This document shows positions 1 to 3,414 of a DNA stretch of 64,000 nt, piece after piece. The translations under genes were made by a program, and so were the position numbers. Location of the stretch: positions 62,930,001 to 62,994,000 of the forward strand of contig JANJGN010000004.1 of NCBI GenBank assembly GCA_026770705.1, given 5' to 3'. Source of the stretch: Isurus oxyrinchus (Eukaryota). Every line of letters starts with the position of its first letter. The first letter of the stretch is position 1. The notes below the pieces were generated by a model. It was not told the origin of the DNA. It searched no databases and worked only from the letters and a program-made list of their open reading frames with translations.

Positions 1-580
1 AGAAGAAAAATTCACCGTGCAGCTAAAGGACTCCACTAGAGCACATGGTGGTCCAATGTGAATCCCCAATGATTGCAGAGTCAAAGTACCTAGCAAGGGT
101 GAGCAAAAATTCAGTACAAAGGCTGAACTAGCTTTTAAAAGTCTTCAGGCCATTAATCAGTCTGAACAGTCTGTTTTGTTAAAACACTGCGGCCAGCCCA
201 GGTTCAGAGTTGGCACCACACCATGTGGCAACCGAGCTTTGCTGAGGGAAAAAAACAAAGTTTTAAAAACTCAGCCAAAGCTGGAAATTGCTTTTGAATC
301 ACCCTAACAGACTCCAAAAACGTTCTAAAGGGCTCAAATCTTTGATTTAAAACTTTGCTGCAAAAAATAGATCCCTATGGGTTGGGTCTGCAATTGCTGT
401 GGGTGCCTGCCAAAACCTGACAAGCGTGGGAGGAAGCATTGAAAAAGTGGTTACTGCAGCGCCATCATTAAAAGTGAAACAGCATTTAACAGTACTTCCC
501 TGAGCTGAAACACAACCATGGTTAATAAATCAACCCTACCAGTTCAATCTGGGCTGATGCAAGAGCCAAACTAGATGTAA

Positions 581-810
581 AACTGGGTGTCATGGAGAAG
601 AAATTTTTTAAGTTACTAGGGTAGGATTAGGTAGGAAATCAGAGGAAGTCCAAGTTAATATGTTTTTATAATTATTTGGTAACATTTCCAATGAAATAAT
701 CCTAAAGCTAGGCATTGATGAAGCTTCAGCCAGCTTTGATGAGGTATTAAAAGCCTTTGACAAGTATTTTAAATCTTCAAATGTTGGAGAGTGCAGAGCT
801 TAAAAAGAGG
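581..810 (+). mobile_element. Degenerate Ty3/Gypsy gag N-terminal region
   Basis: Manual translation through stops and frameshifts gives NWVSWRRNFLSY*, VGLGRKSEEVQVNMFL, FGNISNEIILKLGIDEASASFDEVLKAFDKYF and MLESAELKKR. This matches the WxxWxxRF..GL..KSEExQVNTLLY..FDEVLxxFDxYF..LERAKF pattern of metazoan Gypsy gag. Confidence 0.75.
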
Positions 811-1463
811 TATAGAACACCCACTGTAAAGCAACGAAAGGGAAAAAGACAACACCCAAGCAACCAAATGATGGTTGCAGAACACGTCAGTGCAATGGGA
901 TGCATGAACTGAAGAGCTTAGTGCAGGGGAAAGAGGAGGCTAAGAAGCAGCCAGAATGCTTAAGAATATAACTTTCTGAAAAAGCCAACAAATTACCCAA
1001 ACTGCAACAGCTGGTGGCAGTACAAAGCAGGCAGCTGGTTCTGTATGAAGGGACAGTCATAGACCATTCCAAGCTGAGAGCAGATAATGAAGCCACAAGT
1101 AGCATGACTACAGGACTGAAACAAGTTAAGGCTTTGTCGGAGACAGACCTGCCTAACAATGAAACCAAAATGAAGAACAAGGATAAAGCTTTGATGTAGG
1201 CAGAGAAAGAAAAGACAGAAATAAGATTGGAAAATGTAAATCTGAAGCTGAAGATCAAGGAACTAGAAGGAAAAGCATCGTTTGCCTCAGACTTACTGAG
1301 GACCATTGAACTGTTGAAAGATGTAATGGCTGAACAGAAAATCAAGAACCTAGAATGCCAAGAAAAAGCTGAACAGTCGCATGAGAAAATAGAAGGTCTG
1401 ACAATGTTTCTGAGACTCTTCACACTCCAATTCGCAAAAATAAAATTACAGAATGTGAGCTTG

Positions 1464-1913
1464 AAGGAATTGCTGATAAATCAGAACAGCTGGTTGAATG
1501 TGGAATTAACAGCCAAAACTGAGTAAATTCTTAAACTACGATCCAATCTGAAGAACACGAAAGATGAGATGTGCAGTATGGAAGGACAAGTCCAGACTTT
1601 AAAAGCAGATAAGGCAAAGTCTAAGAAGCAGATTGAGGATTTAACGTGTGAATTGAACGATTCTAAGGAGCAGTCAGTGACTGTGGAAGGAAGATTCTGA
1701 AGGGAATTGAATGCCCAGGTGAAGCTGTTAAGTTTGTATAAGGATTCCATGGATAACTCTGAAACAAAAAGAATTGAACTCACCAGAGCAGTGGCTGAGC
1801 TGAATGAAAAGATTAATAATCTTGAACAAGTATCGGAAAATAAGAGACTAAACAAATATTTGGGTGAAATTGTGAAGCAAATGGAAACAAAGGTTACATT
1901 TTTGAAACAACAA
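1464..1913 (+). pseudogene. TPR: Intronless, internally deleted fragment of nucleoprotein TPR (N-terminal coiled coil) inside the Gypsy element
   Basis: One frame reads KELLINQNSWLNVELTAKTE*ILKLRSNLKNTKDEMCSMEGQVQTLK...KQIEDLTCELNDSKEQSVTVEGRF*RELNAQVKLLSLYKDSMDNSETKRIELTRAVAEL...ENKRLNKYLGEIVKQMETKVTFLKQQ. Recalled human TPR reads [20 protein letters not shown]...[26 protein letters not shown]...[59 protein letters not shown]...[26 protein letters not shown]. There are two in-frame stops and no introns. Confidence 0.85.
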
Positions 1914-2183
1914 CTTCTAGGAGGAACATGGCGGAACCCACGAAAATAGAAATGAATGAACAGAGCCAACATTCCCTCTGGAAGAAACAGGATAAGCAAA
2001 TGGTATCTAACCACAGAAGATGGATGGTTGATGAAGAGAAATTCAACATGACGGAGGGCAAGAAACGAATCAGATGAAGTCAACCAAGTGCCGGAATCAC
2101 AGAGTATTGATTTCAACTCCAAACCAACAAAGCTTGCCCAAAGGAACTGAGCCCACCATTCCTCCAAATGTGACCAGAATGAG

Positions 2184-2283
2184 AAACAAAAACAAAAATA
2201 CCTGGATAAACTCAGCAGGTCTGACAGCACCTGCGGAGAGGAATACAGTTAATGTTTCGAGTCCGTATGACTGTTCACCAGAA
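2184..2283 (-). mobile_element. Penelope-like element terminal fragment
   Basis: aaacaaaaacaaaaatacctggataaactcagcaggtctg...gtttcgagtccgtatgac is the same terminus seen in the other Penelope-like copies in this window. Confidence 0.7.
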
Positions 2284-2287
2284 TTGG

Positions 2288-2529
2288 TGTTCGGCATAGG
2301 AAGGGTTAATGCGGGACTGGAGAACAGCACCTCCCACAGTATAATGTACAGCGGCACATGACAGGGGACAAAGTTTTATGGAAAGACGCAAGTGGAAGGA
2401 AGTCAGCATGAAGTTAGCTCCTAGTCTGGATTACACTTTATACATGTTTATAGTTATGTATTACCAATAAACAGTACAACCTTACAAATCTCTGAACTCT
2501 TCACGAGACCTTTTGAACAACTAATAACA
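2288..2529 (+). mobile_element. Candidate 3' LTR of the Gypsy element
   Basis: It has TG...CA ends (tgttcgg...aataaca) and an internal AATAAA near 2466. It follows a pol C-terminus-like remnant (CRNHRVLI...VTRMR, ~2085-2183). The partner LTR and PPT are not visible. Confidence 0.5.
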
Positions 2530-2539
2530 ATCTTTGCCT

Positions 2540-2721: not shown

Positions 2722-2746
2722 GTAATCCAAATCTTCAGTTGGTTAT

Positions 2747-2964
2747 CCAAAACAAAAACAGAATTACCTGGAAAAACTCAGCAGGTCTGGCAGCATCGGC
2801 GGAGAAGAAAAGAGTTGACGTTTCGAGTCTTCATGACCTTTCGACAGATTTGAAACGTCAACTCTTTTCTTCTCCGCCGATGCTGCCAGACCTGCTGAGT
2901 TTTTGCAGGTAATTCTGTTTTTGTTTTGGATTTCCAGCATCCGCAGTTTTCTTTGTTTTTATTA
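2747..2964. mobile_element. Palindromic Penelope-like insertion with 14-bp TSD
   Basis: Inverted arms (ccaaaacaaaaacagaattacctg...gacgtttc / gaaacgtc...caggtaattctgtttttgttttgg) are flanked by cttcagttggttat at 2733-2746 and 2965-2978. Confidence 0.85.
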
Positions 2965-3020
2965 CTTCAGTTGGTTATGTGCGGCTTTGACCTCTAGATG
3001 ACAGTGCGAGCACGCCGTTA

Positions 3021-3369
3021 GCGGTATTCCTGGCGACGAGCGGCCTCGGCCTGTAGGTGGCGAAATTGCTGGCGCTGGGTGGCCTAGGCTGGTAGGTGGC
3101 GGTGTTCCTGGCGACGAGCGGCCTCGGCCTGTAGGTGGCGGTATTCCTGGCGCTGAGTGGCCTGGACCTGTCAGGTGGCGGTATTGTTGGCGCTGAGTGG
3201 CCTAGGCCGGTAGGTGGCGATATTCCTGGAGCCGAGTGGTTTGGACCAGTCGGGTGGCGGTATTGTTGGCGCTGAGTGGCCTGGGCCTGTAGGTGGCGGT
3301 GTTCCTGGCGACGAGTGGTTTGGAGCAGTAGGTGGCGGTGTTGCTGGCGCCGAGCGGCCTGGGCCTGTT
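3021..3369 (+). repeat. CpG-rich 39-bp tandem repeat (~9 copies) at the POLR1E promoter/5' UTR
   Basis: Unit is approximately ggtggcggtgttcctggcgacgagcggcctcggcctgta, starting at 3056, 3095, 3134, 3174, 3213, 3253, 3292 and 3331, plus a partial first unit. Confidence 0.92.
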
Positions 3370-3414
3370 GGGTCCTGTGTTAGAATCAGTGGCGTGTTTG
3401 TAGTGGTTGTGGTA

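Follow-up and report, generated by a model that had tools for sequence, protein, structure and literature searches.

The family described here resembles several known systems in part. The gag-onc retroviruses are replication-defective, helper-dependent elements in which host mRNA, sometimes from two genes, is joined in frame to a truncated gag; their cargo consists of signalling or transcription-factor domains and they are not known to form germ-line families. In maize, the LTR element Bs1 contains exon fragments from three host genes that are unlinked, joined at switch points which its copies share, according to the excerpted text of two reports (PMC5131818, PMC7264820), but it is present in 1–5 copies, and one fragment of the three is not in frame (excerpts of PMC5131818). 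In animals, partial mRNAs have been found within LTR elements, with short shared sequence at the joints; such LTR-mediated retrocopies can combine several parent genes and go through further rounds as non-autonomous elements, and a template-switch route to them was set out by Tan et al. 2016. The cases given in the excerpts of that report are young and come from fly, mosquito, zebrafish, chicken and mammals (PMC5131818). Finally, the telomeric LINEs of Drosophila have repeatedly captured host fragments that were kept in successful lineages, although these are non-LTR elements and the fragments are 140–235-bp pieces of piRNA genes acting via small RNA (excerpts of PMC13534243). Neither "in-frame" nor "fused" occurs in the text of PMC13534243.

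Anatomy of the element and its host-derived pieces

The window analysed here is a 64,000-nucleotide stretch of the Isurus oxyrinchus genome (GCA_026770705.1, contig JANJGN010000004.1, positions 62,930,001 to 62,994,000, forward strand). Its positions 1–2529 are most of a 2.96-kb non-autonomous LTR element which, with the upstream stretch added, extends from −435 to 2529 (Table 1). For comparison we used 60 copies of the family, the window copy included, which were picked by similarity and are a non-random sample.

Table 1. Features of the element copy, in window coordinates
Feature	Position	Strand	Remarks
5′ LTR	−435..−167 (window-relative, just outside the window)	+	76% identity to 3′ LTR
5′ leader of element	1..517	+	LTR and primer-binding site upstream of window
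gag start and short gag piece	518..900	+	ATG 518, first ~85 codons; piece at 850–898
x1 in-frame segment	901..1050	+	in 52/60 copies
UACA remnant (aa ~1186–1211)	1046..1121	+	81% to host exon
x2, 96-bp in-frame segment	1122..1217	+	in 50/60 copies
ninein piece (aa ~1170–1254)	1213..1465	+	77% to host exon
Spliced TPR piece (aa ~187–440, exons 6–10 and 12)	1464..1906	+	74–85% DNA identity to host gene
Fusion-frame tail	1911..2150	+	common to sister non-autonomous group; family stop near 2148
pol 3′ end	2112..2184	+	different frame from fusion; 77% to L174
Unrelated common repeat	2184..2286	.	private to window copy
3′ LTR, ends ACA	2286..2529	+	
Target-site duplication ATCTT	2530..2534	+	ATCTC at 5′ end; 4/5 bases match

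A first-pass annotation, made from the letters of the window, had proposed a Gypsy-type element in which a captured TPR fragment took the place of pol. Its candidate LTR proved to be the 3′ LTR, and the 5′ LTR, primer-binding site and target-site duplication expected upstream were all located. Family LTRs are direct repeats ~270 bp long with TGT...ACA termini, and so with the TG...CA ends usual for LTRs. Copies of the family carry a TGG-starting primer-binding site, which we take to be a tRNA-Leu match, directly after the 5′ LTR, and a purine tract before the 3′ LTR. This tract is present in other copies and gone from the window copy, in which a 103-bp repeat took the place of the tract and of the first ~14 bases of the LTR; the repeat has 77 matches across 49 of 100 loci.

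Pol-bearing relatives have a gag start that does align with the frame assigned to the gag N-terminus at 581–810, although this frame opens at ATG 518 rather than at 581. The short gag piece at 850–898 sits ahead of the zinc knuckles in relatives, and the fusion family is without both the gag middle and the zinc knuckles. Structure prediction gave the gag piece a pLDDT of 57, with no clear fold match on this low-confidence model and no Pfam match; its identity as gag follows from its position and its homology to gag in pol-bearing relatives. PDB sequence searches and fold searches with the low-confidence gag model returned nothing clear, and of the ESM Atlas searches one gave weak generic matches and one gave no match. 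The absence of pol was correctly noted, none of the 60 fusion copies matching it, but most of gag is gone too. As for the pol C-terminal remnant, the part ending in VTRMR stands, while the CRNHRVL motif is probably due to chance, since it spans a window-specific 2-bp deletion near 2108 and lies outside the stretch matching L174 pol. The window copy is dead, as had been concluded, with many stops and indels that disrupt the gag frame near 622, 771 and 861, and deletions near 1951 and 2108 in the tail frame.

Beyond the element, an inverted pair of a common short repeat, presumably "Penelope-like", occupies window positions 2732–2964; contigs of a second organism skip it, so it is a younger insertion. 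A tandem array of about nine G-rich 39–40-bp units lies at 2978–3412.

The reading frame at 1464–1913 matched whale-shark TPR (58%, E 1.3e-24), its sole match among 798 candidates, which agrees with the original assignment. The host TPR gene is multi-exon and lies on C16, where its exons were mapped; the exon 1/2 boundary is imperfect, and all pieces used are exon 3 or later. The window copy reads through TPR junctions 6/7, 7/8 and 8/9 at 1568, 1661 and 1742, and six TPR exon junctions are crossed by single alignments, each in 21–53 of the 60 copies. Because these junctions are read through without introns, the TPR piece comes from spliced mRNA, which bears out the RNA intermediate proposed at the outset. 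It is thus an intronless partial mRNA inside an element, the feature by which an LTR-retrocopy is recognized. The piece carries family-shared deletions of 33, 96 and 186 nt and was repeatedly shortened across the family. In other copies TPR starts at aa ~97, and in none of the 60 does it pass residue ~445.

Other origins of the TPR piece were considered. Exon skipping as the source of its deletions was rejected since the breakpoints lie inside exons, and generic coiled-coil similarity was rejected by DNA matches to the host loci. An L1-type processed pseudogene was also set aside, there being no poly(A) after the TPR piece and identical junctions in dozens of copies.

The longer coiled-coil frame drawn at 903–1949 was right as to TPR but missed the two other donors, ninein and UACA. 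A profile of window positions 1125–1463 and 13 other copies matched only shark ninein (8 matches, best E 1.4e-34). Many copies have an extra ~740 bases at window position 1051 that are UACA (69% to Carcharodon, E 7e-77), and one such piece, used as a DNA query, had the host UACA exon as its fourth-ranked match; the host UACA is itself 98.8% identical to the Carcharodon protein. UACA reaches up to ~450 codons in other copies, with pieces spanning aa 694–1211. The host loci of UACA and ninein are on C25 and C19. Intron loss is uninformative for these two genes because each piece lies within one large host exon. Segments x1 and x2 were absent from the host UACA, ninein and TPR stretches compared, and no long-frame host exon for x1 appeared among 150 scored loci; both segments may come from further host mRNAs.

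Size, relatives and age of the family

All three host genes are found in 55 of the 60 copies (TPR in 59, ninein in 59 and UACA in 57), and 52 have gag plus all three. A DNA search of the 4.98-Gb genome with 581–2529 yielded 6106 candidates, the 40 best of which all had ~70–80% identity. The x2-ninein piece is present at 149 or more loci, from a scoring of 150 out of 2223 candidates; at least 150 loci carry x1, and with ~39 common to the two sets by eye this amounts to ~260 distinct loci. An 18-mer of the TPR piece occurs 72 times and is present in 18 of 64 known copies, giving ~250 or more copies ("or more" since it was picked as the best conserved word). A few hundred copies is thus a fair estimate of family size. 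The same junctions recur in dozens of copies, so that the predicted multi-copy family, rather than a lone pseudogene, was found, and the notion of a non-autonomous LTR family that transduced TPR mRNA in frame with Gag is supported, with TPR as one of three donors. Of the 15 fusion copies scored at both ends, 7 have target duplications matching at 4 or 5 of 5 bases, compared to 5 of 272 mismatched pairs, so the copies inserted independently with the cargo on board. At least three layouts exist, one of them with UACA pieces out of order, which points to possible recombination between family members. Every copy examined is broken: in a scoring of the best 150 of 2223 candidates no intact copy was found, and open frames reach 283 aa at most, where the host ninein exon has 576 aa. 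The family thus appears to have died out in this genome.

The LTRs are not confined to the fusion copies. A 20-mer spanning the LTR and primer site occurs 121 times, and at 40 spread places among 100 listed we found all three host genes in 4, some in 2 and none in 34; pol was present at 8 of the same 40 places, and 7 belonged to a sister non-autonomous group. Three pol-bearing elements, L174, L160 and L171, have full gag, protease, reverse transcriptase, RNase H and integrase, and their motifs make them probable "Mag"-like Gypsy elements. In L174 the reverse transcriptase (PF00078), RNase H (PF17917, below cut-off) and integrase (PF17921) come in that order, as would be expected of Ty3/Gypsy pol, an order that alone is also compatible with BEL/Pao. 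Fusion copies have the LTR, primer-binding site, gag start and pol 3′ end in common with these three elements and form a single gag clade. Fusion LTRs have 73% identity to the LTRs of L160 and L171 and 72% among themselves. The fusion family is thus a minority branch within a wider LTR family, to which the pol-bearing relatives, its likely helpers, also belong.

The sister group (L168, L178, L180, L185, L186 (907–1476), L195 and L196) consists of ~3.2-kb elements with gag and protease. Their insert is an orphan rich in Gln, Glu and Lys that ends in the tail frame of the fusion family, and it had no Pfam or Atlas match; the sister group is possibly the ancestor whose own rod gave way to host rods. 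Gag and protease are also found in another, more diverged non-autonomous group (L167, L184, L187, L188 and L197), where the same short motif is followed by a low-complexity insert of a different kind. At L141 and L190, copies of this LTR family are nested in or lie next to one another, and L141 holds a fusion copy within a sister-group element.

Several observations bear on age. The two LTRs of a copy differ by a mean of 17.5% (11 copies). Contigs of the second organism bridge the window insertion at its 5′ end (X7, X10) and 3′ end (X10) with ~1–2% difference. The x2-ninein joint and a short TPR piece are present in a protein of Scyliorhinus torazame (P0033, GCB74008.1), and the shared joint indicates that the chimera also exists in the catshark. 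P0033 is annotated as a hypothetical protein and resembles a decayed family copy. The UACA piece has the ancestral residue at 21 of 24 host-changed columns and the galeomorph residue at 11 of 12, and these states together with the catshark chimera place the capture early in galeomorph history. Shark divergence dates would put the capture more than 100 million years back. The silent distance between piece and host gene is 0.59 for TPR, 0.39 for ninein and 0.18 for UACA, which suggests that the genes were captured in this order, each upstream of the previous one, an order that gene-specific rates could mimic.

Reading frame and competing explanations

All 15 modal host-host junction types present in at least two copies (2 to 37 copies each) are in frame. 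A further three classes, of two copies each, differ from a modal junction by one base and are out of frame; we read them as private indels, and including them gives 15 of 18. Among all junctions, those in frame number 121/140 for TPR-TPR, 43/49 for ninein-TPR, 33/38 for UACA-UACA and 23/24 for UACA-ninein. Coiled-coil codon homology alone biases switches to frame (45–75%). At the junctions, homology measured on present-day host genes includes longest exact runs of 2–13 nt, and reaches at least 10 of 15 matches at 8 of the 15. Neutral passengers, their in-frame joints a mere by-product of homology-guided switching, could account for the 8 junctions on strong homology, where the null in-frame share is 0.67–1.0, and also for the free decay of copies since insertion. 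However, the 7 junctions on weak homology (null 0.30–0.47) are in frame as well, and with each junction compared to windows of equal similarity the product of the null in-frame shares over all 15 is 1.2e-4, the junction types being not fully independent. In addition, none of 218 host-versus-family changes is a stop, compared to up to 9.5 expected if all were element-side. Passive carriage is thus largely refuted and in our judgement improbable; the shared junctions set against the homology null argue that the frame was likely kept while the family spread.

The commonest codons of 35 copies give one stop-free phase from ATG 518 to 1130 (gag, x1 and UACA). A stop is the commonest codon at 1 of 722 host-derived columns, a mixed CpG column, and 267 stops in the copies are private. 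Between fusion subclades the gag start has dN/dS 0.17–0.31 against 0.65 for private decay, from small counts (~11 N, 9 S). Host-versus-family dN/dS, which is unpolarised and includes the host's own silent change, is 0.14 for TPR, 0.23 for ninein and 0.33 for UACA, and private decay is at 0.55–0.62. Amino-acid changes in TPR are element-side in 28 of 34 cases and host-side in 4; ninein has 8 element-side and 5 host-side (not significant, P 0.07); UACA has 20 element-side, 33 host-side and 39 silent in all, with no clear element-side constraint. Among the host pieces, TPR alone thus offers a hint of constraint that can be used. Copies share nine internal deletions, and eight of these are heptad-compatible (0, 3 or 4 residues modulo seven; P 0.008–0.14). 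Substitutions diagnostic of layouts, 3–4 between layouts in host-derived columns and 9 of 10 nonsynonymous, were too few to serve as a selection test and were dropped. A comparison of singleton and shared variants was significant but confounded by recurrent transitions, and was dropped too.

We give an even chance to the explanation that this is a dead non-autonomous Gypsy-type family whose frame was kept by selection as a Gag-rod protein aided the packaging of its own RNA. The pol-less element would have been co-packaged with host mRNAs in helper particles, where reverse transcriptase would have switched templates at short similarities and picked up host pieces; frame-breaking variants would have failed to spread. 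The translated Gag-rod-tail protein may then have entered the particles of pol-bearing relatives and brought its own RNA, a benefit in cis. Within it, the Gag start and the basic tail would have been linked by host pieces that were interchangeable and acted as an alpha-helical spacer or as an oligomerising rod, most likely not through the normal job of any one host protein. From DNA comparisons we infer that the hybrid protein was likely made while the family spread with the help of intact relatives; that its tail bound RNA is a guess, the zinc knuckles being missing. The fuller proposal, a serial in-frame and mostly heptad-register harvest of coiled coils from at least three mRNAs to build a Gag-rod-tail adaptor parasitising the capsids of relatives, is put forward tentatively, as less likely than not.

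An alternative that we judge about half as probable as the Gag-rod explanation is that the frame alone mattered: translation to near the 3′ LTR would have protected the RNA or routed its packaging, the peptide itself being functionless, and coiled-coil genes would have been captured for purine-rich periodic codons resembling the element's own insert. This would fit the climb of the in-frame share with microhomology, the free deletion, duplication and reshuffling of host pieces, the weak record of UACA at the amino-acid level and a family stop ~170 bases ahead of the LTR, whereas three modest signals speak for a working peptide: dN/dS is low for the Gag start when subclades are compared, it is low for the TPR piece as well, and the deletions are heptad-compatible. 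A role specific to TPR had been suggested from the beginning, in which the piece targeted the nuclear basket or poisoned host TPR, so that unspliced RNA of the element could be exported. Unspliced retroviral RNA is held back from export by TPR, which requires its N-terminal part to do so (excerpts of PMC3258255), TPR is the most diverged of the three pieces and is nearly universal in the sample, and an N-terminal fragment could still pair with host TPR. Yet the piece ends before the residues reported to anchor human TPR at the pore, L458 and M489 (excerpts of PMC3258255), if human and shark numbering differ by about +1, and lies far from the SPOCD1-binding stretch at 775–877 (excerpts of PMC7618654); four shared deletions and a truncation at its 5′ end have shortened it, and two unrelated coiled coils were handled alike. 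TPR-specific pore targeting is unlikely, and we regard the whole suggestion, dominant-negative action included, as having as little chance as passive carriage. Least probable to us, by a shade, is a master copy useful to the host, either as a Bs1-like chimeric gene or as a restriction factor such as a truncated-Gag inhibitor, or through silencing of host genes by small RNAs of the kind seen with Drosophila TART. Bs1 has been cited as a functional three-gene chimera (excerpts of PMC5131818) and captured host fragments direct piRNAs in telomeric elements (excerpts of PMC13534243), but no intact copy was seen among the best 150 scored loci, with the longest frame at less than half the length of the host ninein exon, and silencing at the RNA level needs no reading frame.

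Comparison with known systems

No shark or chondrichthyan case turned up in the open literature searched, and the family may already be entered in a repeat library such as Repbase or Dfam. Although capture would proceed by a known mechanism (maize Bs1; Tan 2016), a Gag fusion of high copy number with all modal junctions in frame and all donors coiled-coil is without precedent in the literature searched. The family is a natural record of repeated multi-gene transduction in which template-switch rules and frame selection can be counted across a few hundred copies, and it suggests making protein, and not shrinking, as the way in which some non-autonomous LTR elements compete. It is also an annotation hazard, as spurious paralogues of TPR, ninein and UACA arise from its copies, and so do orphan gene models, of which P0033 looks like one. 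If the adaptor reading is true, it would be a case of protein engineering from host parts for the benefit of the element, in sharks before two orders split.

Set beside gag-onc retroviruses, the shark family is Gypsy-type without env and carries structural rods only. Compared to the LTR-mediated retrocopies of other animals, it is old and high-copy and kept its Gag-fusion frame. Compared to Bs1, it comprises at least 149 loci with many junction variants, all modal junctions are in frame and all donors are coiled-coil genes.
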